Origin: an uncultured Eggerthellaceae bacterium
GTDB lineage: Bacteria > Actinomycetota > Coriobacteriia > Coriobacteriales > Eggerthellaceae
Reading direction: 5' to 3'
Assembly (NCBI GenBank): GCA_910588095.1
Contig: CAJUQH010000009.1
Location: 2,606-66,605 of the forward strand
Length of the DNA: 64,000 nucleotides
This document shows, in pieces, positions 45,431 through 64,000 of this stretch. The number at the start of each line of letters is the position of its first letter. Position 1 is the first letter of the stretch. The notes beneath the pieces were generated by a model. It was not told where the DNA came from. It made no database searches and worked only from the letters and a program-made list of their open reading frames with translations. A program made the position numbers and the translations under genes.

Positions 45431-48400
45431 TTGGCCTCTGCCCTTGCGGGCAAGCCCGCCGCGTTCGTCAACGCCGATGTCGCCCTCGATGGTGAGCCTA
45501 TTGTGGGCTCCTTCACCGTCGATGGTTTGACCTTCGCGGTCACAGGGGAATCCCACGTCGAGCTCGTCGGGGTTGCCCCTTCCGTCACCTTGAGCGGAGC
45601 TGCCGAAGGCGGCGAAGCCGAAGGGCCCGATGAAGGCCACGCCAGCGAAGCTAGCGTCGCCAACCTCACCCTCCCCGGATCCGTCACCTACTCCGACACT
45701 GACTACGCCCTCGCCTCCATTGGCGCCTACGCGTTCTACCTCTCGGGCGTGGCCGATGTCATGCTGCCCGCAAGCGTGAACGATGTTGATGACCGTGCGT
45801 TCCGCTCGAGCGACGTCGCCAACGTCACCGTCGCCGACGGCAACCCCAGCTTCTCCTCCTACGACGGCGTCCTCTACGACGCCACCCGATCAAGCCTCCT
45901 GCTCATTCCCGGGGGCAGGCAGGGCGCTGTCCGCATCTCCGACAAGGCCGAGGAGGTGGACGCGTCGGCCTTCTCGCATTGTGCTGGCGTGGATTCGATC
46001 TCGGTCGATGCGGGCAGCGCGCACCTCTCCTCCTGGGAAGGACTCCTATACGATGCCGATGGCACGACGCTCCTGCGCGTGCCGGCAGGCGCCACCGACA
46101 TCACCATACGAGAGGGCTGCACGACCATAGCCGCCGGCGCCATGGAGGGCTGCGCGAGCCTTGAGCGCATCAACGCACCATCGACCGTGACCTCCATCAG
46201 CCCGGATGTGTTCCATGCGCTGCCAACAGTGAGCCTGCCAGCCGCCGCTTTTGCAAAGGAGGCAACGCAGCTCACGGCCATGGTTGCCTTGTCCGCTACC
46301 GGGGAGGATTCCCCACGAATAGACCCGAGCACCATTTTCGTCACAGTGCCTTCTGAGGCCAATGCGATGCTATGGCGCAAGGTTGGGCTCGTGCTTGCAT
46401 CAAACGCCTTGGTTGATGCAGATGAGCCAGCTGCCCAATCGCCAGCTCTATTTGGAGCACCGCGTGTTGCCGGCTATGATTCGACTGCGAATTTCAGCAG
46501 TGTTTTGGGTGGTGGAAATGCTCAATGGTCTTTCAATTCCTCTAGTGGCAATCTGACGATTTGCTGCCATGTCATGGGTGGCCGTCCTTCGATCATCGAT
46601 GATCAATTCAAGTACACTGTCGGCTCTGGTGACCGAGTCAATTACTCAGCTGTCCCTTGGTATAGCTTCAAGGATGAGATAAAGAGCATCACATTCATCG
46701 ACTTCGACGCAACGGACACGACGGCATGGTTTGCGGGCTGCCGCAACCTTGAGAGCATAAGGTTCGTTGCGCAGAACACGGCAAAGCCGCCGCTATCGTC
46801 GGTCGTTTCGACATCTCGCATGTTCGAGAGCTGTGGAAAGCTTAAGGCCATTCCCTCGAACTTTACGTTGGAGGCTTCGACGGAGCTCGTGTCGACCAAT
46901 CATATGTTCACCGATTGCGTAAGCTTGTCGGGCAGCATCCCCGCGGGTATGACGCTCACAGCAAGCGGGAAAAAGCTCGTCCAAGTGGCATGCATGTTCG
47001 CCAATTGCGTGAAGCTATCTGGCGAGATTCCTTTTACGCTAGAGAATTATGCTGGCACGGGTTTCGACTATATGTTCGCATCTTGCCGGAAGATAACCAA
47101 CATACCGTCTCGTTTCACGATGCCGTCTGGCGCAACCGTGACATCTGCTTTCAAGGTGACGATGGACGCGGCCGCGATTCGTGCTGGACAAGGCGATGGA
47201 AGCATCGATTTAAACGGCAAGCTGGTGACCACTTATGCGGGAACGAATAGCGTTGTCAAAGGGCTGAACTGGGACCTATGGGAACGGTCGCTTGGAACTC
47301 AGAGATATGAGATTGTGTTCAACACGAACGGGGGAAGCGGGGAATTCTACCAGACAAGGGTGGGCGCCGTTTATGGGTCGCAGCTCCTCTATAGCACTCC
47401 GGTTTACCGTCTGCCCTCTCCCGCGTTGGAGAAGACGGGGTATGGCAATTGCGACGGATGGATTCTCGGCAAAGCCACAGGCGATAAAACCCATGGGCTC
47501 GGCGCGGAGGTCTCTAACCTTACGGCTACGCCGAATGGCACCGTAACGTTCTACGCGCACTATACTCCGAACGACTATGCGATCTCGTTCGATGTCAACG
47601 GAGGCAAGGATGCTCCCAACAACAAGCCGGTCGATGCGACCGCCACATTCGATGCTGCGTTGCCGGCCATCGGCGCCAACAAGCCAGTGCGGGATGGTTA
47701 CGCTTTCAGCGGGTGGTATGACACCAGCGCCGCCACAGGCGGGAACATGTACTACGATGCGGAGAATAGGGCAGTACCGGGGAAGGCTTGGGACAAGGCC
47801 GACAATACGACCCTGTATGCGCGTTGGACGCCCAACAGCTACACCATCGCCTTCGACTCCCAGGGCGGGCCGGAGGTGGCATCCATGCAAGCGACCTATG
47901 ACTCCGATGTGACGCTGCCCCAGCCTGGTGGGCGCGAAGGCTATGCGTTCGGGAGCTGGAATACCGAAGCTGACGGAAGCGGGGCGGCTTATCAAGCCGG
48001 CATCGCTCTTGCGAAGCCCAACTTGACGACAAGCGGCACGGTTCCGCTTTATGCCCAATGGGTCGCGATCGAAGAAGCAGTCGTGCCCCTTGAGGTGACC
48101 GCGCGGGTGGACGTGCTCGGCATCGAGGACCAGACGCCAGCAACGGGCTACATCGAGTCACGCTGCGGCGAGCCGCTGAAGGTGGCCTCTGTTGAGATCA
48201 CCTCGCTGCCTGGCGCGACCGAGCTGTTCGGCGCGGGCAACGAATCCCAAGTGCAGCTTCAAGCGCTCGCAGGGGAAGGCGCCGCATGGCAGCCTGGCGG
48301 TGCCAACGCCAGCTTCTCGTTCCCGCTGGGGGCTTCCGCGACCGAATCGGACGCAGGCAAGCTGGCTGCCCTCACCATGCAAGCCTACGAGGATCGCGTC

Positions 48401-51229: not shown

Positions 51230-52405
51230 ATGAGCAACAAGGCCTTTTCCGCTACCGGCAACCAGATGATCGCCGAGGCCATGCGCCAGGTCGACCCTGA
51301 CGTCATGGCGGCGTACCCCATCACCCCGCAGACCACCATCGTCGAGAACTACGCCAAGTACGTGGCCAACGGCCAGGTGCACACCGAGTTCGTCACGGTG
51401 GAGAGCGAGCATTCGGCCCTTTCCGCCTGCATCGGCGCCTCGGCCGCCGGCGCTCGCGTGGCCACGGCCACCGCATCGCAGGGCCTGGCCCTCATGTGGG
51501 AGGAGCTCTACATCGCCGCCGGCATGCGCACCCCCATCGTCATGGCCAACGCCAACCGCGCGCTTTCGGCCCCCATCAACATCCACGGCGACCACTCCGA
51601 CGTCATGGGCGCCCGCGACACCGGCTGGATCATCCTGTTCGCCGAGACGGCGCAGGAAGCCTACGACAACACGGTCATCTCGTTCAAGATAGCCGAGGAC
51701 TCCCAGGTGCTGCTGCCCGTGATGACCACGCTCGATGGCTTCATCACCAGCCACGCCATGGAGCGCTGCGAGATGGAGGAAGACGCCACGGTGCAGCAGT
51801 TCGTGGGCGACTACCATCCCAAGTACGCGCTGCTCGACACCGACGAGCCCGTGGCCCACGGCATGTTCGCCAACGGCGACTCCTACATGAAGACGCGCCT
51901 GGCCACCCGCAACGCCAACATGGGCTCGCTGCCCATCATCGAGAAGTACGGCAAGGCCTGGGCTGACGTGACCGGCCGCCCCTACGACCTGGTCGACTGC
52001 TACGAGACCGACGATGCCGACTACATCGTGGTGGTGCTGGGCTCGGCCGCCGGCAACGTGCGCCACATCGCGCGCCAGCTGCGCGCCGAGGGCAAGAAGG
52101 TGGGCGTCGTACGCCCCCGCGTGTACCGCCCGTTCCCCGAGGAGCAGATCGTCGAGGCGTGCAAGGGCGCCAAGGCCGTGGCCGTGCTCGACCGCTCCGA
52201 TTCGCTGGGCGCCACCCACGCGCCGCTGGGCGCCGACGTCATGAGCGCCTTCTACGCCGCGGGCCTGAGCATTCCCGCGAAGAACTACGTGTACGGCCTC
52301 GGCGGCGCCGATGTGACCAACGTGGTGGTGCAGGGTGTGTTCGACGACCTCGAGAAGGTGGCCGACGGCACGCTGGACTGCGACCTGCGCTACATCGGCA
52401 TCTAA
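51230..52405 (+). CDS. porA: 2-oxoacid:ferredoxin oxidoreductase, alpha subunit
   Basis: 391 aa. 'AAYPITPQTTIVE', and its position in the gamma-delta-alpha-beta operon. Confidence 0.85.
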   Translation: MSNKAFSATGNQMIAEAMRQVDPDVMAAYPITPQTTIVENYAKYVANGQVHTEFVTVESEHSALSACIGASAAGARVATATASQGLALMWEELYIAAGMRTPIVMANANRALSAPINIHGDHSDVMGARDTGWIILFAETAQEAYDNTVISFKIAEDSQVLLPVMTTLDGFITSHAMERCEMEEDATVQQFVGDYHPKYALLDTDEPVAHGMFANGDSYMKTRLATRNANMGSLPIIEKYGKAWADVTGRPYDLVDCYETDDADYIVVVLGSAAGNVRHIARQLRAEGKKVGVVRPRVYRPFPEEQIVEACKGAKAVAVLDRSDSLGATHAPLGADVMSAFYAAGLSIPAKNYVYGLGGADVTNVVVQGVFDDLEKVADGTLDCDLRYIGI

Positions 52406-52427
52406 GGCATGAGGAAGGAAACGAGCA

Positions 52428-53375
52428 ATGGCTAACATCAAAGAACTGTCTCGCCGCCCCGAATGCCTGGCCCCGGGCCATCGCCTCTGCGGCGGCTGCG
52501 GCGCATCCATGGCGGTGCGCCAGGTGCTGATGGGCGTGCCCGAGGACGCAGTGCCCGTGGTGGGCTGCGCCACCGGCTGCCTTGAGGTGTCGACGACCAT
52601 CTACCCCTACGACGCATGGAACGTGCCGTTCATCCACAACGCGTTCGAGAACTCGGCCGCGACGGTGTCGGGCGTCGAGGCGGCCTTCAAGGGCCTGCAG
52701 CGCGCCGGCAAGATACCGGCCGACAAGAAGGTGAAGTTCGTGGCCTTCGGCGGCGACGGCGGCACCTACGACATCGGCCTGCAGTCGCTGTCGGGCGCCA
52801 TGGAGCGCGGCCACGACATGGTGTACGTGTGCTACGACAACGGCGCCTACATGAACACCGGCATCCAGCGCTCGTCGGCCACGCCGAAGGGCTCGTGGGC
52901 CACGACGGCCGAGGTCGGCAAGGACCAGCAGGGCAAGACCCAGCGCCGCAAGGATCTGGCCTCCATCATCGCCGCTCACGGCGTGCCCTACGTGGGGCAG
53001 TCCACCGTAGGCCACTGGAAGGACCTGGTGTCCAAGGCCGAGAAGGCATTCGCTGCGGACGGCCCGGCATTCCTGAACGTGCTCGCGCCGTGCCCGCGCG
53101 GCTGGCGCATCGGCTCCGACGAGACCATGCTCATTTCGCGCCTGGCGGTGGACACCAAGTTCTGGCCGCTGTTCGAGGTCGAGAACGGCAAGTGGACGCT
53201 CACGCCGGTCAAGGAGAAGAACCTCAAGCCGCTCGAGGACTTCCTGAAGCCCCAGGGCCGCTTCAAGCACCTGTTGAAGCCGGAGAACGCCGAGCTGCTG
53301 CAGGAGCTGAAGGACGACGTCGAGGACTACTGGAAGTACCTCGAGGGCCGCGTGGAGGGCTCGAAGGACCTGTAG
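52428..53375 (+). CDS. porB: 2-oxoacid:ferredoxin oxidoreductase, beta (TPP-binding) subunit
   Basis: 'CGGCGASMAV', 'FGGDGGTYDIGLQSLS', 'YDNGAYMNTGIQRS'. Confidence 0.85.
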   Translation: MANIKELSRRPECLAPGHRLCGGCGASMAVRQVLMGVPEDAVPVVGCATGCLEVSTTIYPYDAWNVPFIHNAFENSAATVSGVEAAFKGLQRAGKIPADKKVKFVAFGGDGGTYDIGLQSLSGAMERGHDMVYVCYDNGAYMNTGIQRSSATPKGSWATTAEVGKDQQGKTQRRKDLASIIAAHGVPYVGQSTVGHWKDLVSKAEKAFAADGPAFLNVLAPCPRGWRIGSDETMLISRLAVDTKFWPLFEVENGKWTLTPVKEKNLKPLEDFLKPQGRFKHLLKPENAELLQELKDDVEDYWKYLEGRVEGSKDL

Positions 53376-53523
53376 GGCCAAAAGCCCGCAGGCCTCAGGC
53401 GAGGCATGCCCAGCACGCCACCTTCGCGTTCCAAGCGCACTTATCTCGTGGCACGAAGGCCACTCGAGTGCGCTTCCACGCGAATCTGACGCACTGGCTG
53501 CACCTTCATATAGGCGAGCAAGC

Positions 53524-53560
53524 AAAGGGAGGGCCTTGCCCCTCCCTTTCGTCGTTTTTG
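53524..53560 (+). terminator. Rho-independent terminator after porB
   Basis: AAAGGGAGGG (53524-53533) pairs with CCCTCCCTTT (53540-53549), followed by TTTTT (53555-53559). Confidence 0.8.
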
Positions 53561-53574
53561 GGCAAGATTCACCG

Positions 53575-53603
53575 TTGACGCAGGCAAGTGCTGACCATAT
53601 ACT
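53575..53603 (+). promoter_or_regulatory. Predicted rplM-rpsI promoter: TTGACG-N17-TATACT
   Basis: Read directly. Leaves a ~210-nt leader before GTG 53819. Confidence 0.55.
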
Positions 53604-53818
53604 TGAAAAGTTCGCTTTCAAAAGCCCCGTAAACGCAGAGCGGGTCGAAGGCGCGCGCACGATGGGGAGTCCAGAACCCGGTCGAGCGCGTCGAGCGCGG
53701 CGTAGGAAACCGCGCGGGCTTTCGCCATCTGCACTTTTGAAAACAAACCGGTGCGCATCGGGCGCCCCGCAAGGGCACGCTTCAACCCGGGTGCCGCACA
53801 CCATAGGAGGAAGTAAGA

Positions 53819-54253
53819 GTGAAGACGTATTACGCAAAGCCGCAGGAGGTGGAGCGCGAGTGGGTCCTGATCGACGCTGAGGATCAGGTGCTCGGCCGCG
53901 TGGCCACCAAGGCAGCCACCATCTTGAAGGGCAAGCACAAGCCGCAGTACACCCCGCACGTCGACACGGGCGACTTCGTTGTCGTCGTGAATGCCGACAA
54001 GATCCGCGTGACCGGCGCCAAGACCACCGACAAGGTGTATTCCCGCCACAGCGGTTTCCCGGGCGGCCTCAAGCAGGAGACCTTCGAGGAGGCCATGGCC
54101 AAGCACCCCGAGCGCGTCATCGAGCACGCGGTGAAGGGCATGCTGCCCAAGAACACGCTCGGCCGCGCCATGGGCAAGAAGCTGAAGGTGTATGCCGGCC
54201 CCGACCATCCGCATACCGCACAGAATCCGCGCAAGATCGAGATGGAGGGTTAA
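53819..54253 (+). CDS. rplM: 50S ribosomal protein L13
   Basis: '[42 protein letters not shown]'. Confidence 0.95.
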
Positions 54254-54255
54254 TC

Positions 54256-54648
54256 ATGGCAGGTGAAGCTCTGTATTACGGCACCGGCCGCCGCAAGAAC
54301 GCCGTGGCGCGCGTGCGCCTGGTGCCCGGCACCGGCAAGGTGACCGTCAACGGCCGCGAGGGCGTCGACTACTTCGGCCGCGAGTCGCTGGTCGACTACG
54401 CCAAGGCCCCGTTCAAGGTGACCGACACCATGGGCCATTTCGACGTGCTGGCCAACATCAAGGGCGGCGGCATCTCGGGTCAGGCCGGCGCGCTGCGCCA
54501 TGGCATCTCCCGTGCGCTGCTCGAGGCTGGCGATTACCGCGCCGAGCTGAAGAAGGCCGGTTTCCTGACGCGCGACTCCCGTATGGTCGAGCGCAAGAAG
54601 TACGGCCTGAAGAAGGCCCGCAAGCGCCCGCAGTTCTCCAAGCGCTAA
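54256..54648 (+). CDS. rpsI: 30S ribosomal protein S9
   Basis: '[19 protein letters not shown]...[12 protein letters not shown]'. Confidence 0.95.
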
Positions 54649-54684
54649 GGCCCAGCCCTCACAGCGTTGCAGGTTCTGCGACCG

Positions 54685-54720
54685 AGCCCCCTGGCTTCAC
54701 TGCCGGGGGGCTTTTTCGTT
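54685..54720 (+). terminator. Rho-independent terminator after rpsI
   Basis: AGCCCCCTGGC-ttcact-GCCGGGGGGCT, followed by TTTTCGTT. Confidence 0.75.
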
Positions 54721-54888
54721 GCGCGGGATTCGCGGCTCTGCCTTCGGCGGCCACCTGCGGCTTCGCAGGATGTGCGCGCTCTATAGATAGAGCGCCTAAT
54801 CGGGGAAAGCCCGCGCGCAACGGGCGGCCTTTCGGTTAATATGGGAAGGATGGAACGCAAGGCGCGAAGCTTGGAGGAGATTCCCCTT

Positions 54889-55605
54889 ATGGCTGATGGA
54901 TACAAGTATGACCGCGTGCTGCTGAAGCTGTCGGGCGAGGCCCTGGCTGGCGACCAGGGCTACGGCATCGACCCGAAGGTGGTCGACCGCCTTTCCGAGG
55001 AGATAGCCGAGATCGTGCGCGACGGCGTGCAGCTGGCCGTGGTGGTGGGCGGCGGCAACATCTTCCGCGGGCTCGCCGGCTCGGCCGAGGGCATGGACCG
55101 CGCCCAGGCCGACTACATCGGCATGCTGGCCACGGTGATGAACGCCCTGGCCCTGCAGGATTCCTTCGAGCGCCACGGGGTGTTCAGCCGCGTGCAGAGC
55201 GCCATCAACATGCAAGAGGTGTCCGAGCCCTACATCCGCCGCCGCGCCCTGCGCCACCTGGAGAAGGGCCGCGTGGTCATCCTGGCTGCGGGCACGGGCA
55301 ACCCCTACTTCACCACCGACACCACCGCTGCGCTGCGCGCCTGCGAGCTGGACGTGGACTGCCTCATGAAGGCCACCAAGGTCGACGGCGTCTATGACAG
55401 CGACCCGGCCAAGAACCCCGAGGCGAAGCGCTTCGATCGCATCACCTACATGGACGTGCTCAACCGCGGGCTGAACGTCATGGATGCCACGGCCACCTCG
55501 CTGTGCATGGACAACGACGTGCCCATGATAGTGTTCGACCTGACCAAGCAGGGCAACATCCAGGCGGCGCTGAAAGGCGCCGACGTCGGCACGGTGGTGG
55601 AGTAG
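54889..55605 (+). CDS. pyrH: UMP kinase
   Basis: '[13 protein letters not shown]', '[10 protein letters not shown]'. ATG 54889 follows GGAGGAGA. Confidence 0.9.
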
Positions 55606-55662
55606 CCGCGCCGCAACGACCGCACGATTAGAGGAACCTGAAAGAGGAGGAGGGCGCAAGCC

Positions 55663-56226
55663 ATGGCAGAGGTAGACGAGATCCTGACGAAGGCGGAAGG
55701 CCGCATGGGCAAGGCGCTCGAGGCGCTGCATGACAACTTCACCGGCGTGCGCACCGGCCGCGCGACGCCCATGGTGCTCGACCGCATCAAGGTTGACTAC
55801 TACGGCACCCCCACCCCCATCAACCAGATGGCGGGCGTGAAGACCCCCGATGCCCACATGCTGGTCATCGAGCCGTGGGACAAGTCGGTGCTGGGCGCCA
55901 TCGAGAAGGCCATCCTCGAGAGCGACCTGGGCGTGACCCCCAACAACGACGGCGCCGTGCTGCGCCTGCCGTTCCCCCAGCTTACCGAGGAGCGCCGTCG
56001 CGAGCTGGTGAAGCAGTGCAAGGCTTACGCCGAGGAGGCCCGCGTGGCCGTGCGCAACGCGCGCCGCGACGCCAACGACGCCATCGGCAAGGCGCAGAAG
56101 AACGACGGCCTGCCTGAGGACGAGGCCAAGCGCGCCGAGGAAGCCGTGCAGAAGCTTACCGACAAGTTCGTGAAGGACGTCGAGGAAGCCACCAAGAAGA
56201 AGGAAGCGGAAGTGATGGAGATCTAG
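55663..56226 (+). CDS. frr: Ribosome recycling factor
   Basis: 187 aa. '...VRTGRATPMVLDRIKVDYYGTPTPINQMA...'. Confidence 0.95.
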   Translation: MAEVDEILTKAEGRMGKALEALHDNFTGVRTGRATPMVLDRIKVDYYGTPTPINQMAGVKTPDAHMLVIEPWDKSVLGAIEKAILESDLGVTPNNDGAVLRLPFPQLTEERRRELVKQCKAYAEEARVAVRNARRDANDAIGKAQKNDGLPEDEAKRAEEAVQKLTDKFVKDVEEATKKKEAEVMEI

Positions 56227-56281
56227 GCTTTCCCGCGAAGCGGGGAAGCCTCGCTTCGACGAGCTTCGCCTATGGTGGTAA

Positions 56282-57064
56282 ATGAACAAGCCCCTCGACT
56301 ACATATTCCCCGATGTGCCGGCCGACATCGATTTGTCGGCCTTGCGCGCCGATGCCATCCCGCAGCACATCGCCATCATCATGGATGGCAACGGCCGCTG
56401 GGCCAAGAAGCGGGCGCTCAACCGCCTGCGCGGCCACAAGGCGGGCATCGAGGCGGTGCGGGAGGCTATCCGCTGCGCGTCTGACCTGGGCGTGCGCTAC
56501 CTGACCATCTACTCGTTCTCCACCGAGAACTGGAAGCGCCCCGAAGACGAGGTCGTGGGGCTCATGGACCTGTTCGCCAAGACCATGCTGGCCGAAGTGG
56601 ACGAGCTGCACGACGAGCACGTGCGCGTGATGACCATCGGCGACCTTTCGCCCTTGCCGCCCGAGACGCGCGCGGCGTTCGACGAGGCGTGGGAGAAGAC
56701 GCGCCGCAACGACGGCATGACGCTGGTGGTGGCGCTCAACTACGGCGGCCGGCAAGAGCTCTTGCACGCTGCCCAGGAATGCGTGCGGCGCTGCATGCTG
56801 CGCGCCGAGGCCGGCGGCGGGGCGCCCGAGGTGACCGAGGACCTGCTGGAGCAAGGCCTGTTCACCTACGGCATACCCGACCCGGAGGTCATCGTGCGCA
56901 CGAGCGGCGAGATGCGCCTCTCGAACTTCCTTCTGTGGCAGGCGGCCTATGCCGAGTTCGTCTCGTCGCCGGTGCTGTGGCCCGACTTCGACCGCTACGA
57001 GCTGCTGCGCTGCCTGCTGGAGTACCAGCGGCGCGACCGCCGGTTCGGCGGGGTAGGCGCATGA
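56282..57064 (+). CDS. uppS: Isoprenyl transferase (undecaprenyl-diphosphate synthase)
   Basis: 'HIAIIMDGNGRWA', 'RTSGEMRLSNFLLWQ'. Confidence 0.9.
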   Translation: MNKPLDYIFPDVPADIDLSALRADAIPQHIAIIMDGNGRWAKKRALNRLRGHKAGIEAVREAIRCASDLGVRYLTIYSFSTENWKRPEDEVVGLMDLFAKTMLAEVDELHDEHVRVMTIGDLSPLPPETRAAFDEAWEKTRRNDGMTLVVALNYGGRQELLHAAQECVRRCMLRAEAGGGAPEVTEDLLEQGLFTYGIPDPEVIVRTSGEMRLSNFLLWQAAYAEFVSSPVLWPDFDRYELLRCLLEYQRRDRRFGGVGA

Positions 57065-58179
57065 CGGCCGGCGGCCAGCTGACCGAGAAGCAGCGCGCCG
57101 CCCGGGCGCGCCTGCGCGAGCGCACCGACGAGCTGTGCCGCCAGGCCGATGGGCACCCGTGCCGCCCCACCACGCGCGACCTGGTGCTCGAGGAGGAGCT
57201 GGACGTGGTGCTCGACGCCGTGCCAGCCGGCCCCCCATGGCACTACGACATGACGCCGAGCGAGCAGGCGAAGCGCCAGCAGAAGCGCGACCGCCGCGCC
57301 CAGACCAAGGAGAAGGTCAAGGAGAAGGCGCTCGACAAGGCCCCTGAGAAGCTGAAGAACCCCACGAGCCTTCAGGTGCGCTTCCGCACGGGCGTGGTGT
57401 ACACCGCGGTCACCGTGCTGTCGGTGCTGGCCGGAGGCCTGCCCATGCTGGTCATGCTCATGGTGGTGGCCGGCATCTGCGCGGGCGAGTTCTACTACAT
57501 GCTGCGCCAAGACGCCAAGCTGCCCAACGAGATGCTGGGCATCATCGCGGCGGTGCTCTACCTGCCCGCCGTGTACTTCTTCGGGGCCATGGGGGCGCTG
57601 GCAGTGAGCCTGGCGTTGCTGCTGGCGCTGCTGGTGTGGTACGTGTTCTGGCTGCGCAGCCGCATCCCCGATGTGTGCGAGAGCTTCTTCGGCGCATCGT
57701 ACACGGGCCTGCTGCTGTGCGGGCTGGTGGTCATCCAGCAGGCGCTTCCGTACCCGTGGGGCAGCATCGTGGTGCTGCTGCTGTTCCTGAGCGTGTGGGC
57801 CAACGACTCGTTCGCCTACCTGGTGGGCAGCAAGTTCGGCAAGCACAAGCTGGCGCCGCGCACGAGCCCCAAGAAGAGCTGGGAGGGCTTCCTGGCGGGC
57901 ATCGTGGGTTCGGCGGCGTTCTGGGTGGCCATCGCGTTCGTGCCGGGGGTGCAGCTGCCGGTGTGGCTGGCGGTGCTGTTCGGCGTGGTGTGCGCCCTGG
58001 CTGAGGTGCTGGGCGACCTGGTGGAGAGCCGCATCAAGCGCAATTCCGGCTTCAAGGACTCGGGCACCATCATGCCGGGCCACGGGGGGCTGCTCGACCG
58101 TTGCGATTCGCTGTTCCTGGCGTCGGCGGTGGCGGCCATCCTGCTGGTGGGCTTCGGCTGCATACCCTCGGTGCTGTAG
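57061..58179 (+). CDS. cdsA: Phosphatidate cytidylyltransferase
   Basis: 'SPKKSWEG', 'PGHGGLLDRCDS'. ATGA overlap with uppS; has a long hydrophilic N-terminus. Confidence 0.85.
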   Translation: MTAGGQLTEKQRAARARLRERTDELCRQADGHPCRPTTRDLVLEEELDVVLDAVPAGPPWHYDMTPSEQAKRQQKRDRRAQTKEKVKEKALDKAPEKLKNPTSLQVRFRTGVVYTAVTVLSVLAGGLPMLVMLMVVAGICAGEFYYMLRQDAKLPNEMLGIIAAVLYLPAVYFFGAMGALAVSLALLLALLVWYVFWLRSRIPDVCESFFGASYTGLLLCGLVVIQQALPYPWGSIVVLLLFLSVWANDSFAYLVGSKFGKHKLAPRTSPKKSWEGFLAGIVGSAAFWVAIAFVPGVQLPVWLAVLFGVVCALAEVLGDLVESRIKRNSGFKDSGTIMPGHGGLLDRCDSLFLASAVAAILLVGFGCIPSVL

Positions 58180-58235
58180 CAGTGCAGCCGCGCCCGCTTC
58201 GCCGGGGGCGCGGGCATGCGGAAAGGTTGGCAGAT

Positions 58236-59486
58236 ATGGGCACGCGCAAGCGCATCGTGGTGTTGGGCTCCACCGGCTCCATCGGAAGGCAGACCCTCGA
58301 CGTGGTGTGCCAGCACTCGGACAAGCTGGAAGTGGTGGCCTTGGCGGCCCATGGCAGCGTGGACGCGCTGCTGGCCCAGGCGCGGGCGTTCGGCGTGCGG
58401 CACGTGGCGCTGGGCGACCCGGCTGCGGCGGCGAGCCCTTCCTTCGAGGCGCTCGAGCGCACGGTGTTCGACGGGCCGCCGACGGGCGATGTGGTGATGC
58501 CCGAGGCGCCGGGTGGCGGGGGCACGGAGCCTTCGGTTGGCCTGGGGCCTGAGGCGGTGGCGGCCCTGGCTGCGCTGCCCGAGGCCGATATCGTGGTGAA
58601 CGCCCTGGTGGGTGCCGCGGGCATGCGGGCCAGCTACGACACGCTGCGGGCCGGCAAGGTGCTGGCGCTGGCCAACAAGGAGTCGCTGGTGGTGGCGGGC
58701 GACCTGATCATGCCGCTGGCGCGGCAGCTGGACGCGGCGGCGGGACGCCAGCACGCGCTCATGCCCATCGATTCCGAGCACGGCGCCATCTACCAGTGCC
58801 TGCTGGGGGAAGATGCGCGCGAGGTCGCGCGGCTGTGGGTGACCGCTTCCGGCGGCCCCTTTCGCGGGCGCACTGCCGACGAGCTGCGCGGCATAGCGCC
58901 CGAGCAGGCCCTGGCGCACCCTACCTGGAACATGGGCGCCAAGATAACCATCGACTCATCCACGCTCATGAACAAGGGACTCGAGGTCATCGAGGCGCAT
59001 CACCTGTTCACGATGGATTATGGCCGCATCGAGGTGGTGGTGCAGCCCCAGAGCGCCATCCATTCCATGGTGGAGTTCGCCGACGGCAGCGTGAAGGCGC
59101 ACCTGGGCACCACCGACATGCGCATTCCCATCCAGTTCGCGCTGAGCTACCCCGAGCGCTGGGACGCGCCGGTGGAGCCGCTCGACTTCCGCACGCTGGG
59201 CACGTTGGAGTTCGCGGCGCCCGACATCGACACGTTCCGCTGCCTGGCGCTGGCGCGTTACGCGGGGGAATGCGGCGGCACGCTGCCGTGCGCCATGAAT
59301 GCGGCCAACGAGGTGGCCGTAGCGGCGTTCTTGGCTGGGCGCGGGAGCTACCTGGGCATCGCGGGCACGGTCGAGGCGGTCATGGAGGCGCACGAGCGCG
59401 AAGGCGTCCAGGAGGTAACGAGCCTTGAACAACTGGAGGCTGTGGACGCGTGGGCGCGCCGGTTCGCGGAGAATCATCTGATGTGA
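58236..59486 (+). CDS. dxr: 1-deoxy-D-xylulose 5-phosphate reductoisomerase
   Basis: 'VLGSTGSIGRQTLDV', 'LANKESLV', 'NMGAKITIDSSTLMNKGLEVIEAH'. Confidence 0.9.
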   Translation: MGTRKRIVVLGSTGSIGRQTLDVVCQHSDKLEVVALAAHGSVDALLAQARAFGVRHVALGDPAAAASPSFEALERTVFDGPPTGDVVMPEAPGGGGTEPSVGLGPEAVAALAALPEADIVVNALVGAAGMRASYDTLRAGKVLALANKESLVVAGDLIMPLARQLDAAAGRQHALMPIDSEHGAIYQCLLGEDAREVARLWVTASGGPFRGRTADELRGIAPEQALAHPTWNMGAKITIDSSTLMNKGLEVIEAHHLFTMDYGRIEVVVQPQSAIHSMVEFADGSVKAHLGTTDMRIPIQFALSYPERWDAPVEPLDFRTLGTLEFAAPDIDTFRCLALARYAGECGGTLPCAMNAANEVAVAAFLAGRGSYLGIAGTVEAVMEAHEREGVQEVTSLEQLEAVDAWARRFAENHLM

Positions 59487-59636
59487 CGTGCGAGGCGCTG
59501 GCGCGGGGCGTCGGCCTGGGCGGCCGGGCGCTATGCGGGCGGCTTCGTGCGGGCGCGTGATGTGTCGTGCGGCTTGTGCGCGTAATGGCGTGCGCGGCTG
59601 CGCGGCGCGTTGTGGAGACGAGAGGAAGGCCTTGAG

Positions 59637-59894
59637 ATGGCATACTTGAGCAACCTGACCCTGTATTACAAGCCCACCTGCCCCTTCTGCATCAAGGTGC
59701 TGGATTACATGGAGCAGCAGGACATCGCCTGCGAGATGCGCGATACGCTGCAGCCGGGCGTGCGCGGCGAACTGGTGGCGATCGGGGGCAAGGGCCAGGT
59801 GCCGTGCCTGATCATCGACGGGGCGCCGCTGTACGAGTCGGACGACATCATCGCGTACCTGCATGGCCTGGTGGCTGCTGACGAGCTGGGCTAG
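59637..59894 (+). CDS. Glutaredoxin-like (thioredoxin-fold) protein
   Basis: 85 aa. 'LYYKPTCPFCIKV' with a CPFC active site, and 'GKGQVPCLIIDG'. Confidence 0.75.
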   Translation: MAYLSNLTLYYKPTCPFCIKVLDYMEQQDIACEMRDTLQPGVRGELVAIGGKGQVPCLIIDGAPLYESDDIIAYLHGLVAADELG

Positions 59895-59909
59895 GGAAGG
59901 GGCGCGGCC

Positions 59910-60377
59910 ATGAAGATAGTGAGCGAGTTCCGCGAGTTCATCGAGCGCGGCAATGTCATGGACATGGCCGTGGGCATCATCGTCGGCGCGGCGTTCACCG
60001 CTATCGTCACGTCGCTGGTGGACAACATCATCACGCCGTTCATCACGCTGGTGACCGGCGGCAACGGCACCGAGGTGAAGGGGCTTTCGATTCCTGTGCC
60101 GGGCACCGAGAACGGCATCGACTTCGGGGCGTTCATTGGGGCGGTCATCAACTTCCTCATCATCGCGTTCGTGGTGTTCCTCATGGTGAAGGCCATGAAC
60201 AAGCTGCGCGACAAGGGCGCGAAGGTGCTCGGCAAGAACGGCGAGGAGCTGCAAGAGAAGGCGCCGGCGTGCCCCTATTGCCTGGAGAACGTGCTGGAGG
60301 GGGCCACGCGCTGCCCGCATTGTGCGGCTGAGCTGCCCGCACCTGCCGCGCCTACCGTGGTGGCGGCTGAGGGATAG
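59910..60377 (+). CDS. mscL: Large-conductance mechanosensitive channel with a C-terminal CxxC...CxxC zinc-ribbon tail
   Basis: 'FREFIERGNVMDMAVGIIVGAAF', and a tail 'CPYCLENVLEGATRCPHCAAEL'. Confidence 0.9.
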   Translation: MKIVSEFREFIERGNVMDMAVGIIVGAAFTAIVTSLVDNIITPFITLVTGGNGTEVKGLSIPVPGTENGIDFGAFIGAVINFLIIAFVVFLMVKAMNKLRDKGAKVLGKNGEELQEKAPACPYCLENVLEGATRCPHCAAELPAPAAPTVVAAEG

Positions 60378-60525
60378 GATTCCCTGCGCCGACGCCTGGC
60401 CTACGAGGAGCGGATGTCGCCTGGGGCCATTCAGGCGGCTCCTTGGCCTTCTCGTGGCCTGTGGGGCGGTCGCTGGGCGAGCTGCCGTTCGAGCTTGCTG
60501 CCGCCCGATTGCTGACGCGTTGCGC

Positions 60526-61107
60526 CTAAGCCTCCTTCTTCGAGCAGAGCAGCAGGATGCCCGAGACTATGTTCACGAAGATGAGCGTGCATACGCCCAG
60601 GGCCACGGTGTTGGGCTTCGTGCCTTTGTAGATGCCCCAGGTGCGCACTGTCATGGGTATCATCCAGGCCAGCGGGATGATGAGCCAGCAGCATCCGGCG
60701 ATGGTGATGAGGTTCAGGATGAAGGCGATGAGCCGCAGCGTGCGGTCGGTGTCGGTCATGGTGTAGACGACCGGAACCGTGGTGCCGGCGGGTGCGGACT
60801 GCTGGACGTTGACGGTCACCGTGGGCTGGGGCGCTTGGGCGGCTGCGGCGGTCGTGGCGGCCTGGGTGGCGTCAGCGGCGGGTTGCGCAGCGGCTGCGGC
60901 GGGCTGGGCGTCAGCGGTTGCGGCATGATGGTCGCTGGCTGGCTGGGCGTTGGCAGCCGTGGTGGGCTGCGCGGCGGCTGCGGCGGTCGTGGCGGCCGGT
61001 TGCCCCTGGGCGGGCGCGTAGTGGTCGGTCCATGCGGCGCCGTCCCAGTAGCGCAGCTTCGTCGTGTCGCCCATCGGGTCCGGATACCAACCTGCTTCTG
61101 CCGCCAT
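60526..61107 (-). CDS. DUF2510-type membrane protein (N-terminal 'GWYPDP...RYWDG..WT' module, A/T/Q-rich linker, C-terminal TM pair)
   Basis: 'MAAEAGWYPDPMGDTTKLRYWDGAAWTDHY'. ATG 61107 follows AAGGAGAGG. Confidence 0.7.
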   Translation of the reverse strand: MAAEAGWYPDPMGDTTKLRYWDGAAWTDHYAPAQGQPAATTAAAAAQPTTAANAQPASDHHAATADAQPAAAAAQPAADATQAATTAAAAQAPQPTVTVNVQQSAPAGTTVPVVYTMTDTDRTLRLIAFILNLITIAGCCWLIIPLAWMIPMTVRTWGIYKGTKPNTVALGVCTLIFVNIVSGILLLCSKKEA

Positions 61108-61562
61108 GAGCCTCTCCTTAAGTCTCAACTTCTCTCTCGCAACCAGTATAGGGCATCACCGGTGGGGGGTTCTGTACTATCGGCGATACATACGCAACGC
61201 GTCATACCAAGAGAGCCTTTGGTGGGCAATATGGTTAATATGTATCGTTTAATCTGCCTTTTCTTGGAATAAGGAGCTGGTTCTTTTGTGCTTAGATGCT
61301 TGAAGATTATGGCATAAGTGCATTCAGGCATGATTCAAGGGTGGTATCACGCTTTGCAATTGCCATGTCCCATAGGGTTGACTTGTGAGAAGCCCAACAT
61401 TCAATCCTGTAACGTATTCAGCAGAGGTAGGGCCACAGCGGAACTCGGGATTGCGTTCTCGTTTGAGAATCAAAGCAGACGAGGAGCTGAGGGGAAAATA
61501 AATCATTTCCGGATTGTCTGCAGATTCATCAGCCCACGCTATTGTTAAAGAAAAAGAGGCTC

Positions 61563-62351
61563 TTAGAAATTCCGAATCCCTTCAAATGCCGCCCCTAATA
61601 TCAATCCCAGCAAGAAAGTAATGATTCCAAACCACCATCGACCATTAAGCAGCTCATAGATACCCTGAGGATGCAAGCCGTAAACTTCTATTAAAGAGCT
61701 AGCGATTTTCAATCGATTCTCGCAAGCCATGCTTATGATATTGGAAATTTCATTCACTTTTCGAAGCGTGGACTGATGAAGCTTGACATATTCTTGTGCA
61801 TCGAATGCAATGGCCTCTCCTTCTCCTGATAGCAATTCTTTGCGACCCATATCGTTTAGCTCTAAGAGTTTTTGCATGCGGGGATGGCCACCTGCGTATC
61901 CTTCTCCGTAACAATCCTTTAGTACCCGAGCGATATCGATGAGTTTGCTATCATCTATCCTGTGGGGAACGCCGTTTAACACTTCGTAGCGATGGTAAAT
62001 CGCAGGGAAACCATAATTGATGTCTCTCATATTCCAATGAACCCATTTGGATTTTGTAGATTTCTGAATAAAGTCCATAAGCTCATCAAGCATGGCCTTT
62101 TCGAGCTCATCGTATTTATCGCTGATTGCGGCAAGCGGCACTCCCTGTTTTTCGGCAATTTTATGAATCGAAAAGGAGTGCGTTTGACCGGAATCAAGCT
62201 CCCTTACAGCAATAGAAGTAATTCGTGGGGTTCTCCCATCATGAATATCATAGAAGCTTTCGCATGAGTAATGGATTACCAGATAATCTCTTGGCGATTC
62301 TTCAATTTCTTTTAAGGTCTTCCTAGCCTGTTTGTGTCTCTTATAACGCAC
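61563..62351 (-). CDS. Uncharacterised 262-aa protein with a C-terminal TM anchor and a DnaQ/DEDD-exonuclease-like motif pattern (hypothesis). Translationally coupled to the upstream ATPase
   Basis: GTG start 2 nt after the ATPase TAG, with GAGGAA RBS. Motifs 'LVIHYSCESF', 'WVHWNMRDINYGF', 'AIAFDAQEYVKLH'. TM 'WWFGIITFLLGLILGAAF'. Lies in the low-GC island. Confidence 0.6.
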   Translation of the reverse strand: MRYKRHKQARKTLKEIEESPRDYLVIHYSCESFYDIHDGRTPRITSIAVRELDSGQTHSFSIHKIAEKQGVPLAAISDKYDELEKAMLDELMDFIQKSTKSKWVHWNMRDINYGFPAIYHRYEVLNGVPHRIDDSKLIDIARVLKDCYGEGYAGGHPRMQKLLELNDMGRKELLSGEGEAIAFDAQEYVKLHQSTLRKVNEISNIISMACENRLKIASSLIEVYGLHPQGIYELLNGRWWFGIITFLLGLILGAAFEGIRNF

Positions 62352-62353
62352 GT

Positions 62354-64000
62354 CTATTCCTCAAAATCTAGCCATTTGTTGGGAATTAGCTTTTCTCCAT
62401 CAGTTTCCCAATGCTCTACTTCATAAATCGACCGAAACTCTCCCCAGATATCTTTGCCTGCGTGCTCAGTGACAATGATTTGGAAATCGAAATCATCTTC
62501 TTTTAGGAATTTATCAAACGAAGCAAAGATTTTTTTAACCGCTGCACGATCCCTGTCTGCTTCTATGTTTTCTGAATCCGCATGTCCAATATTTTCATTT
62601 ATCTCATGTGCGTGTGGAAAATATACTTGGCTCGGCTGATCATAAAAAATGAAGCTCGGAATACTAAGAGGCGAGTTTGCTTGAAGGTATTTTTGCAATG
62701 CTAAAGAGAAGGCTATATGATAAGAAAGCCAGTTTGAGGCGCTTCCAATTTCACTGAGCAGCCTAATTGATCCTTCGTTATCGATAATCTCAAGAGAAAG
62801 ATTTTTGTAATCAAAGACTGTCTTCCAGTCATCATGCTCAACATCCAGACTTTTTAGTCCAAATTTTGTATATGCTGCAATATCTTCAATTGCTTGATGA
62901 AGTTTTTGAGCCGTGTTTGCAGCGCTGAGGAGAGTTTCGAGCTCGTTCTGCCTCTTTAGCAAAGCTTCAATCTTTGATTCCGCTTCAGTATCCCGGAAAA
63001 TGGCTTTAAATTGCTTTAGAGAAGCCCGTAATTCTCCGATGAATCGCTCGATTTCCGATAACGTAAATCGTGTGCTGCTTTGCTCTTCTTCCAACGCTCT
63101 AAGTTCACTTGAAACGGCGTTTAATTCATCGCTGGCTGTTTGAATCTTGCTTAAGAGTGTTTTTCTTTCCTTGTCGAATCCAAGTTTAATTTGAGATGCA
63201 GAAGCTTCACTATTGATTTCGAGGGATAAGGCTTGAAGACTCTCTAGCTCCTTATGGCCCTCACGTAATTGCTGACCGCATATTGGGCACGCCTCTTCTT
63301 CGGATACTCTGTGAAGCAACCATTCTGTTATGCCGATGTAATCTGTTAACGAATCTAGCGTTTCTTCCATTTGATCATAAGACAGCAGTGCTTTATCTAT
63401 TTTCTCTAATCGTCGAATGAGGTCTGCCTTCTCCATCGAGAGATCTGCTTCGATTGAGCTCAACTGAGCGATCTTTTCTGAAGCGGCCCCAGCTTCACTT
63501 ACGGTTTCTAAAATATCGGAATGATTTAATTGGCTGATGCGCTCGATTTCTTTAAGCAAATCATCAAAGTCCTCTGTAAGGTCAGGGTCGAATGTACTAA
63601 CTCCCAATTCGCAAGCTCGTGTAATTTTTCCTTTTGCTGACATCTTCCAGCTTGCCGAAACGTTTTTAAGAGCCTTCACTTCGTTCTGAAGTCTCGCAAG
63701 TCGTTTTTTAACCTCTTCTAGTTCCAACTCATTAACTAAGTCTCGCGAGGTTATGGCTCCGGCAAGATAAGGGAATATGCTCGCAAGTTTTTGTTTATGC
63801 TCCAGTTTATCCAGCTTATAGAACAAAGCTTCAGGGTTTGCGATGATATTTTGCGGTTGATATAAAAAGGCGGCTATATCACGAAATGACGGCCTTTCGG
63901 TTTTCCAGGCCCCTTGGTCAGCTATTGGAAGGTCCGTGAAGCCGAATTGCTGATTAAGAAGGTCTTTTATATTTTCGGAAGTAGTATTTTCAGTAATGAA
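62354..64000 (-). CDS. Rad50/SMC-like ABC ATPase of the DUF3732 type; 5' end (Walker A) lies beyond the window edge
   Basis: The frame is open from nt 64000 (the track ORF starts at TTG 63826). 'FLYQPQNII' (Q-loop-like), long coiled coil with 'CPICG' at 63275..63289, 'SEIGSASNWLSYH' (signature-like), 'FIFYDQPSQVYFP' (Walker B / DQP motif), 'IIVTEHA' (H-loop). Confidence 0.75.
   Translation of the reverse strand, partial: FITENTTSENIKDLLNQQFGFTDLPIADQGAWKTERPSFRDIAAFLYQPQNIIANPEALFYKLDKLEHKQKLASIFPYLAGAITSRDLVNELELEEVKKRLARLQNEVKALKNVSASWKMSAKGKITRACELGVSTFDPDLTEDFDDLLKEIERISQLNHSDILETVSEAGAASEKIAQLSSIEADLSMEKADLIRRLEKIDKALLSYDQMEETLDSLTDYIGITEWLLHRVSEEEACPICGQQLREGHKELESLQALSLEINSEASASQIKLGFDKERKTLLSKIQTASDELNAVSSELRALEEEQSSTRFTLSEIERFIGELRASLKQFKAIFRDTEAESKIEALLKRQNELETLLSAANTAQKLHQAIEDIAAYTKFGLKSLDVEHDDWKTVFDYKNLSLEIIDNEGSIRLLSEIGSASNWLSYHIAFSLALQKYLQANSPLSIPSFIFYDQPSQVYFPHAHEINENIGHADSENIEADRDRAAVKKIFASFDKFLKEDDFDFQIIVTEHAGKDIWGEFRSIYEVEHWETDGEKLIPNKWLDFEE

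Follow-up and report, generated by a model that had tools for sequence, protein, structure and literature searches.

What kind of module occupies the low-G+C edge of a genome segment from a high-G+C gut actinobacterium, and does the gene coupled to its large ATPase belong to that module? The segment, hereafter the window, is a stretch of 64,000 nucleotides (nt) from an uncultured Eggerthellaceae bacterium (GenBank assembly GCA_910588095.1, contig CAJUQH010000009.1, positions 2,606 to 66,605 of the forward strand), which carries at its right-hand end, on the minus strand, the truncated gene of a large ATP-binding cassette (ABC) ATPase followed by a gene for a 262-amino-acid (aa) protein that we call X262. 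With a probability of roughly 0.85, the island containing both genes carries lmuA-lmuC-lmuB, the operon of a canonical type II Lamassu of the short class, to which X262 was added as an independent hitchhiker gene. The Lamassu core is an ordinary and well-studied system, not a new variant. X262 is the sole unexplained element of the locus, and the interest lies in the X262 family itself rather than in Lamassu.

The large ATPase is the LmuB subunit of a short type II Lamassu

The reading frame of the ATPase is open from position 62354 to the window edge (549 codons), and its product matched the PADLOC LmuB profile PDLC03859 with an E-value of 2.5e-76 over profile positions 110-608 of 611. Profile coverage starting at position 110 places the remaining ~109 N-terminal residues beyond the edge. 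Positions 52001-64000 of the window are 100% identical to the metagenome contig L001 (12 kb), which supplies 8351 nt past position 64000, and the full-length LmuB read on this contig (657 aa) matched the same profile at 2.6e-110 over positions 1-608 of 611. LmuB further matched Pfam DUF3732, named LmuB_C in current Pfam labels, at 2.3e-45 (154.8 bits; cut-off 25), and its residues 4-653 matched chain 9hqu_A of a Lamassu complex in the Protein Data Bank (PDB) at 6.2e-115. The features of LmuB within the window, each motif with its aligned counterpart in 9hqu_A, are as follows.

62354..64000, minus strand: 3' portion of lmuB with its stop codon (residues 110-657 of 657), encoding an SMC/Rad50-like ATPase (SMC, structural maintenance of chromosomes), assigned by PADLOC, Pfam DUF3732 and PDB 9hqu_A
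63842-63868, minus strand: Q-loop region FLYQPQNII, residues 154-162, aligned to FTFQPQNVV
63275-63289, minus strand: CxxC zinc hook CPICG at the coiled-coil apex, residues 347-351, aligned to CPMCG
62729-62755, minus strand: ABC signature-like motif SEIGSASNW, residues 525-533, aligned to SEIGSGSNW
62615-62656, minus strand: Walker B motif SFIFYDQPSQVYFP of the hhhhD[Q] type, residues 558-571, aligned to SFLILDQPSQVYFP
62459-62479, minus strand: H-loop region IIVTEHA, residues 617-623, aligned to LIVLDHA

The Walker A motif GDSRTGKS (residues 34-41) lies outside the window and was read on the identical contig; it fits the consensus Gx4GK[S/T]. LmuB proteins of short Lamassu systems combine this Walker A with a Walker B of the form hhhhD[Q/S/T/E] and have between zero and two CxxC zinc hooks (PMC12663957). 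The length of 657 aa, the Walker B core FIFYDQ, which is inside the window, and the single CxxC hook therefore place LmuB in the short Lamassu class, the Pfam Rad50_zn_hook match being weak (0.047).

Both partner genes lie on L001 directly past the window edge. LmuC (162 aa) is encoded between lmuA and lmuB by a gene that shares 4 nt with lmuA and terminates 1 nt short of lmuB. It matched Pfam MC3 at 1.3e-20 (73.9 bits; cut-off 23.2) and the PDB chains of LmuC and Lamassu C at 4.4e-11 to 3.6e-8; no PADLOC LmuC model was matched. LmuA (407 aa) matched the PADLOC LmuA model over its full length at 3e-38, Pfam CTD7 with 29.5 bits (cut-off 27.6), PDB 9nxx_A at 2.9e-23 (residues 8-396) and 9hqu_C at 1.3e-15. 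Alignment of its N-terminus to solved LmuA of the V. cholerae type set D40/D41 and Q54-x-K56 opposite the residues DD...QDK, and the lysine opposite K56 is the one replaced by alanine in the mutant entry 9ny1. All three proteins thus match solved subunits, the cryo-electron microscopy (cryo-EM) entries matched here being PDB 9hqu, 9nxx, 9ny5 and 9uxh.

Type II Lamassu is the same as the ABC-three-component (ABC-3C) system, and its domain grammar of Cap4 plus CTD7, MC3 and DUF3732 has been described for DdmABC of V. cholerae (10.1101/2025.06.23.660979). Lamassu, which evolved from SbcCD/Rad50-Mre11, occurs in ~15% of prokaryotic genomes; its phenotypes concern phages and plasmids, and several of its structures have been solved by cryo-EM (PMC12663957). 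The operon studied here resembles type II Lamassu, known also as DdmABC (V. cholerae) and as CTD7/MC3-type ABC-3C, in that its genes overlap or abut in the order lmuA-lmuC-lmuB, in the putative nuclease N-terminal domain and CTD7 of LmuA, in the MC3 identity of LmuC, and in an LmuB of ~650 aa (~600-660 in the class) with a DUF3732 head, an hhhhDQ Walker B and a short coiled coil. It differs from the solved systems in several respects. Sequence identity is low to moderate, with LmuB matching over its full length at 6e-115 and LmuA just at 1e-15 to 3e-23; LmuB carries a single CxxC hook and its V. cholerae counterpart none (PMC12663957); the additional coupled gene X262 follows lmuB; and the cassette, at ~40% G+C, lies in a high-G+C gut actinobacterium.

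These results bear out much of what an earlier note on the window had put forward from its sequence, namely that the large ORF (open reading frame) encodes the DUF3732 ABC ATPase of an ABC-3C system, that it contains the motifs FLYQPQNII, SEIGSASNW, SFIFYDQPSQVYFP and IIVTEHA, all present and each with its 9hqu_A equivalent, and that a middle component and an effector, now found as MC3 (lmuC) and CTD7 (lmuA) proteins, would lie beyond position 64000. Its remark that almost no experimental data exist for such systems is outdated in view of the published phenotypes and structures, and the suspected variant in which the ATPase is followed, not preceded, by a coupled membrane protein resolves into the normal lmuA-lmuC-lmuB order plus one extra gene.

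A mechanism can be carried over by homology from the solved complexes of Vibrio cholerae and related bacteria, in which LmuB2-LmuC-LmuA senses double-stranded DNA ends and phage replication origins, and released LmuA tetramerises so that the Cap4 nuclease is activated (PMC12663957; 10.1101/2025.06.23.660979). By this analogy, an LmuB dimer with one LmuC would keep one LmuA monomer inactive through its CTD7 domain. An encounter of the SMC-like sensor with the ends of phage or plasmid DNA, or with intermediates of its replication, would release LmuA, which would then tetramerise, and its Cap4-like PD-(D/E)xK nuclease would degrade DNA and abort the infection. Roughly 3800 Lamassu operons are catalogued, and the Lamassu part of the locus adds little beyond an example of the DdmABC type from gut actinobacteria (Eggerthellaceae).

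In the metagenome-assembled genome (MAG) GCA_948769675.1, a single-nucleotide indel splits lmuB into two ORFs (L002:8026-10011), which reflects either a pseudogene or an assembly error.

X262 belongs to a widespread family with a predicted exonuclease fold and tail anchor

Two features of the window define the gene that follows lmuB.

61563..62351, minus strand: X262, 262 aa, coupled to lmuB, supported by the ORF, its homologues and a phrog_8766 match
61578..61637, minus strand: C-terminal hydrophobic helix of X262, residues ~239-258, a predicted tail anchor according to hydropathy, the AlphaFold2 model and the family alignment

The GTG start of X262 lies 2 nt after the lmuB stop, preceded at 8 nt by a GAGGA motif that is inside the lmuB 3' end, and no promoter-like or terminator-like site was found at this junction. 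Many contigs from metagenomes and MAGs encode an identical 262-aa protein. Searches in 90% clusters revealed 3224 homologues at E <= 1e-3, there are 1221 representatives at 50% identity, and ~50% identity is kept across phyla, including Bacillota, Bacteroidota, Cyanobacteriota and Pseudomonadota. For a phylum-spanning family of this size (>3000 clusters at 90% identity), annotation is scant. Pfam and NCBIfam gave nothing above noise, with a weak Pfam DNA_pol_B_exo1 match; PADLOC-DB 2.0.0 returned no model match at E up to 1; and a profile of 40 homologues yielded noise only against PDB sequences (E 0.3-0.5). The single strong match was to phrog_8766, a PHROGs family with no described function, whose positions 2-252 of 262 align to X262 residues 1-255 at 2.6e-81. 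Gene 0007 of the Streptococcus prophage Javan528, a member of this family, also encodes 262 aa. Unlike the prophage members, X262 is chromosomal, lies in a defence island outside any lysogeny module and is fused to a Lamassu operon. We found no mention of the family in the literature under phrog_8766, WP_000248334 or FIG01118056, and nothing resembling X262 is described in a preprint on genes embedded in defence systems.

The confident AlphaFold2 model of X262, built with 40 homologues (pLDDT 87.4, pTM 0.81), shows an RNase H-like core (beta1-3/alpha/beta4/alpha/beta5) together with a helical region; its last helix, at residues 239-260, is hydrophobic. Foldseek matched it to exonuclease domains of family B polymerases, 3'hExo, DnaQ, ERI2 and the MAEL domain of Maelstrom. 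Matches in the PDB reached probabilities of 0.96-1.0 and TM-scores of 0.4-0.58 (normalised to target length) with E-values of only 2e-3, and those to viral YprB-like or RNase H-like exonucleases reached E-values down to 2.7e-5. By its model, X262 therefore has an RNase H-like/DEDD-exonuclease fold. The catalytic residues tell a different story, for no expected Asp/Glu position of the DEDD set reaches 90% conservation among 133 diverse family members. At the ExoI position X262 has S29-C30-E31, with Ser29 in place of the first Asp, and neither E31 nor D110 is kept across the wider family. X262 thus has the exonuclease fold but fails the defining catalytic test. The positions conserved at 90% or more are instead H27, Y28, E84, H105, W106, R121, Y152, N166, E179, S194 and K198, and, like MAEL, X262 may retain the fold with a different site.

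The soluble domain (~235 aa) precedes a single C-terminal helix. The best Kyte-Doolittle 19-mer scores 2.07 (residues 241-259), and a hydrophobic C-terminus is kept across the family alignment. With its hydrophilic N-terminus and C-terminal hydrophobic helix, X262 is therefore predicted to be tail-anchored with a cytoplasmic domain, which sets it apart from DEDD exonucleases and MAEL, none of which has a C-terminal membrane anchor. The earlier note had described a tightly coupled, uncharacterised membrane protein at this place. The gene, its 2-nt coupling and its membrane helix are real, but the protein has one C-terminal helix and is not polytopic.

Genomic contexts of the X262 family point to a possible role in exclusion or defence

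We surveyed the X262 family in 80 species-representative genome loci and counted 79 upstream neighbours. LmuB was found within 10 kb in a single locus (L016), on another Eggerthellaceae MAG that also encodes LmuA and LmuC. Elsewhere, the gene directly upstream encodes an Xre-type helix-turn-helix (HTH) protein in at least 12 of the 79 loci, often ending 0-2 nt before the X262 relative, and the PADLOC 'control protein' model is matched by 12 of the 79 neighbours. Other genes found directly upstream are glmS, resolvases, integrases and IS110 transposases, together with one case each of pAgo, type I and type IV restriction, Shedu SduA, a DRT reverse transcriptase, AbiEii, PglX and PDC-S50.

The family also occurs at the ends and in control regions of mobile elements. 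Seventeen Streptococcus prophages carry it in the lysogeny module, on the integrase/repressor strand, between integrase/repressor and early genes, and the conjugative plasmid pAW63 carries it after an HTH gene. Three Bacilli (L034, L058 and L087, from Neobacillus, Thermaerobacillus and Sutcliffiella) have it between glmS and tnsA-tnsB-tnsC, 11-15 nt before tnsA, where it is the first gene at the glmS-proximal end of these Tn7-like transposons. Gut Clostridia (L015, L018-L020, L024-L026, L030, L037, L043 and others) share an end-module beside guaA that consists of a tyrosine integrase and a ~110-aa ORF on the minus strand and, on the plus strand, an Xre-type HTH gene (~170 aa) followed after 0-2 nt by X262, with variable defence cargo upstream, such as McrBC and type I restriction-modification (R-M) in L015.

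We infer from these data that X262 stands on its own, as a gene that is carried by elements or protects the host, and that it would act on nucleic acid, in exclusion or defence, at the inner membrane face. Such a role fits the fact that its relatives occupy lysogeny/maintenance-control and element-end positions, frequently have an Xre or 'control protein' partner and repeatedly neighbour unrelated defence genes. Lysogeny modules, element ends and places beside many defence genes are the positions of exclusion and defence genes. Small membrane-associated superinfection-exclusion proteins borne by prophages or other elements, namely lactococcal Sie2009 and Ltp of S. thermophilus, offer a parallel, in that the X262 relatives of streptococcal prophages share their site between integrase/repressor and early genes and their lysogenic direction. 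This likeness is one of position and description; unlike the outward-facing Sie2009 and Ltp, X262 has a soluble domain predicted to be cytoplasmic, and no relation in sequence or fold is expected. A bolder proposal, possible though tentative, is that X262 founds an undescribed class of genes on mobile elements and in defence islands, encoding tail-anchored cytoplasmic proteins that would reuse the DEDD fold with a new His/Glu/Arg-based site and exclude incoming phage, plasmid or conjugative DNA at the membrane face, either alone, in the case of prophages and of integrative and Tn7-like elements, or as a Lamassu add-on in Eggerthellaceae. Tests of the family are cheap and could yield a single-gene system that is new to the defence catalogue.

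The main alternative to an exclusion or defence role is that X262 is the toxin of a pair under Xre control, which would stabilise mobile elements through addiction or abortive infection, and that it sits in this island as an orphan toxin under lmuB read-through. The 14 gut Clostridia loci in which the end of an Xre-type HTH gene lies 0-2 nt ahead of X262, the 'control protein' neighbours, HigBA directly upstream in L012 and the presence of the family at integrative-element ends and in prophage lysogeny modules all agree with such a pair. Yet ~65 of the 79 loci lack an HTH gene directly upstream, neither this nor the other Eggerthellaceae islands contain one, and no toxin family matches X262, which makes the toxin explanation an unlikely one.

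X262 was probably joined to Lamassu once in the Eggerthellaceae lineage

The gene directly upstream of lmuA encodes a single-polypeptide Type ISP R-M enzyme of 1666 aa with an Mrr nuclease, a helicase-like ATPase and a methyltransferase (PADLOC E = 0). It spans L001:1315-6315, ~1.7-6.7 kb past position 64000, and its stop overlaps the lmuA start. The resulting ISP-LmuACB-X262 block was found in four Eggerthellaceae islands, namely L001, L016, L114 (Parvibacter caecicola) and L116, the last at a different chromosomal site. Between these islands ISP is 82-87% and X262 76-87% identical, versus 33-56% for LmuA, LmuC and LmuB, which occur as three alleles. In LmuB, the P. caecicola block is 98% identical. 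Nucleotide homology to L016 resumes ~170 nt before the lmuB stop. The lmuB-X262 junction was therefore inherited rather than independently selected, and between the fixed flanks the Lamassu body was either swapped or diverged fast. With three deeply diverged alleles held by the same two flanks, ISP and X262, the block provides a natural case of cassette turnover or rapid divergence in a fixed defence scaffold.

Neither of the two LmuB relatives examined outside this lineage, L123 (55% identity) and L124 (42%, with an ISP gene), has X262 after lmuB. A metagenome scan with an LmuB alignment gave two loci only, one ending at the contig end and one distant. Among plasmids, none of the 13 X262-carrying records was among the 30 listed of the 52 LmuB-carrying records found, and the plasmid LmuB relatives are at most 32.5% identical. 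Most likely, then, X262 is no Lamassu subunit but an independent mobile gene whose attachment to lmuB happened a single time in the Eggerthellaceae lineage. X262 would have become transcriptionally fused to the lmuB 3' end and would then have travelled within the ISP-Lamassu-X262 block. The suggestion that X262 is a general partner of Lamassu does not hold for a family that occurs almost entirely without it.

The tight junction could also mean that the operon is an undescribed variant of Lamassu with X262 as a genuine fourth component, either an accessory nuclease tethered to the membrane or an anchor by which LmuACB would be localised or augmented. Such a component would account for the 2-nt gap, the Shine-Dalgarno sequence within lmuB and the missing promoter and terminator, and for an lmuB-X262 adjacency that is kept in L001, L016, L114 and L116 while the Lamassu proteins diverge far more than X262 does. 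Against this stand the 79 of 80 species-representative X262 loci without LmuB, the lack of overlap among the listed plasmid records, the two LmuB relatives outside the lineage without X262 and the inherited L016 junction. In addition, solved Lamassu complexes are already complete and active as A1B2C1 (PMC12663957; 10.1101/2025.06.23.660979). We consider a fourth component very doubtful.

Several points nevertheless weigh against a canonical Lamassu accompanied by an independent, protective X262. The 2-nt lmuB-X262 spacing is kept in 4/4 Eggerthellaceae islands, at two or more chromosomal sites and with three Lamassu alleles that are 33-56% identical, so that X262 and Lamassu may be functionally linked in this lineage. 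The putative active site of X262 (H27, Y28, E84, H105, R121 and others) fits no known catalytic set, and LmuA scores 16 bits against Pfam Cap4_nuclease, under the cut-off of 26.2. What points to an exclusion or defence role of X262 is genomic context and topology, and every functional assignment made here is derived by homology.

In L114 (10393-11070) and L116 (10974-11648), X262 is followed by a gene for a DUF3800 protein of ~225 aa, and no remnant of a degraded DUF3800 gene was detected in the window junction. The ISP gene stands beside Lamassu in five separate contexts (L001, L016, L114, L116 and L124), L124 being without X262; ISP and Lamassu may be a preferred pair in these gut bacteria.

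The operon lies in a mosaic defence island

Two further features of the window mark the right-hand border of the island.

60526-61107/61128, minus strand: DUF2510 gene (Pfam DUF2510, 3.9e-13), the first high-G+C core gene flanking the island, a boundary marker outside the system
61129..61562, no strand: right-hand island junction, non-coding (~430 nt), in which G+C rises from 0.43 to 0.66, as seen from composition and an ORF scan

As the earlier note had observed, G+C drops abruptly after the DUF2510 gene. In 500-nt windows it stays at 0.64-0.74 until 61000, is 0.52 at 61000-61499 and lies at 0.39-0.44 from 61250 to 64000. The fall, starting from ~0.66-0.70, is located at ~61130-61250. The contig L104, which spans both borders, gives an island of ~11.8 kb in the order nitroreductase gene (high-G+C), ApeA, ISP, LmuACB, X262 and DUF2510. 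On L001 all island genes are on the same strand and encode an ApeA-type HEPN protein, an 85-aa ORF, the Type ISP R-M enzyme, LmuA, LmuC, LmuB and X262. G+C inside the island ranges from 0.38 to 0.63, with the ISP gene intermediate, and the island is therefore mosaic. The region is a horizontally acquired conflict or defence island.

A housekeeping function of the ATPase, as an SMC/Rad50/SbcC-like protein for repair or partition in a prophage or conjugative element instead of defence, could be argued from the SbcCD/Rad50-Mre11 ancestry of Lamassu (PMC12663957) and from weak matches to fragments of the Rad50 hook and an SMC-related archaeal model. This idea is effectively refuted by matches of LmuB, LmuC and LmuA to Lamassu-specific models and structures at 1e-11 to 1e-115, by ApeA and Type ISP R-M as neighbours and by the absence of integrase, transposase, replication, partition and phage structural genes within the island. 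Hidden Markov models thus place the ORF in its family and the context is one of defence rather than housekeeping, the two matters on which the earlier note had let its proposal depend.

The borders bear few marks of a mobile element. An 11-nt direct repeat, TGATTCTCAAA, brackets the island, with one copy at window positions 61462-61472, 90 nt past the X262 stop, and the other at L104:9958-9968, 33 nt ahead of the ApeA start. Since ~0.06 matches of this kind are expected by chance, the repeat is too weak to be called an att site. The junction 61129..61562 contains no Rfam match and no terminator-like site, and no tRNA was found on L104 in a scan that ran from the far junction through the island as far as ~61282 of the window, short of 61129-61281. 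An empty site was not obtained, because every contig with an identical DUF2510 protein also has the island. All contigs from the source organism show the DUF2510 gene between the same neighbours.

Some variation was apparent among samples. The Ala/Thr/Gln/Pro-rich linker of the DUF2510 protein (window ~60863-60972) varies in length; L004 has it shortened by 135 nt and L002 lengthened by 36 nt. The ApeA gene is heterogeneous at its 5' end among samples (L001-L008), with calls of 465, 403, 372, 359 and 341 aa, of which the 341-aa call is that of the window-identical contig, and contig L103 (positions 1-183) has unrelated sequence upstream of ApeA codon 36. In contig L098, the segment from ApeA codon ~96 to X262 codon 9 is inverted, with L098:8700-8800 joining L104:10287 to L104:20354 (window ~62326) through a microhomology of only 6 nt (CTAGGA). 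Either an illegitimate inversion truly took place and disrupted ApeA and X262, or the contig is an assembly chimera. Elsewhere in the window, milder G+C dips are seen at 1-2000, 26001-28000 and 46001-48000 (0.55-0.57 versus a background of ~0.66-0.72).

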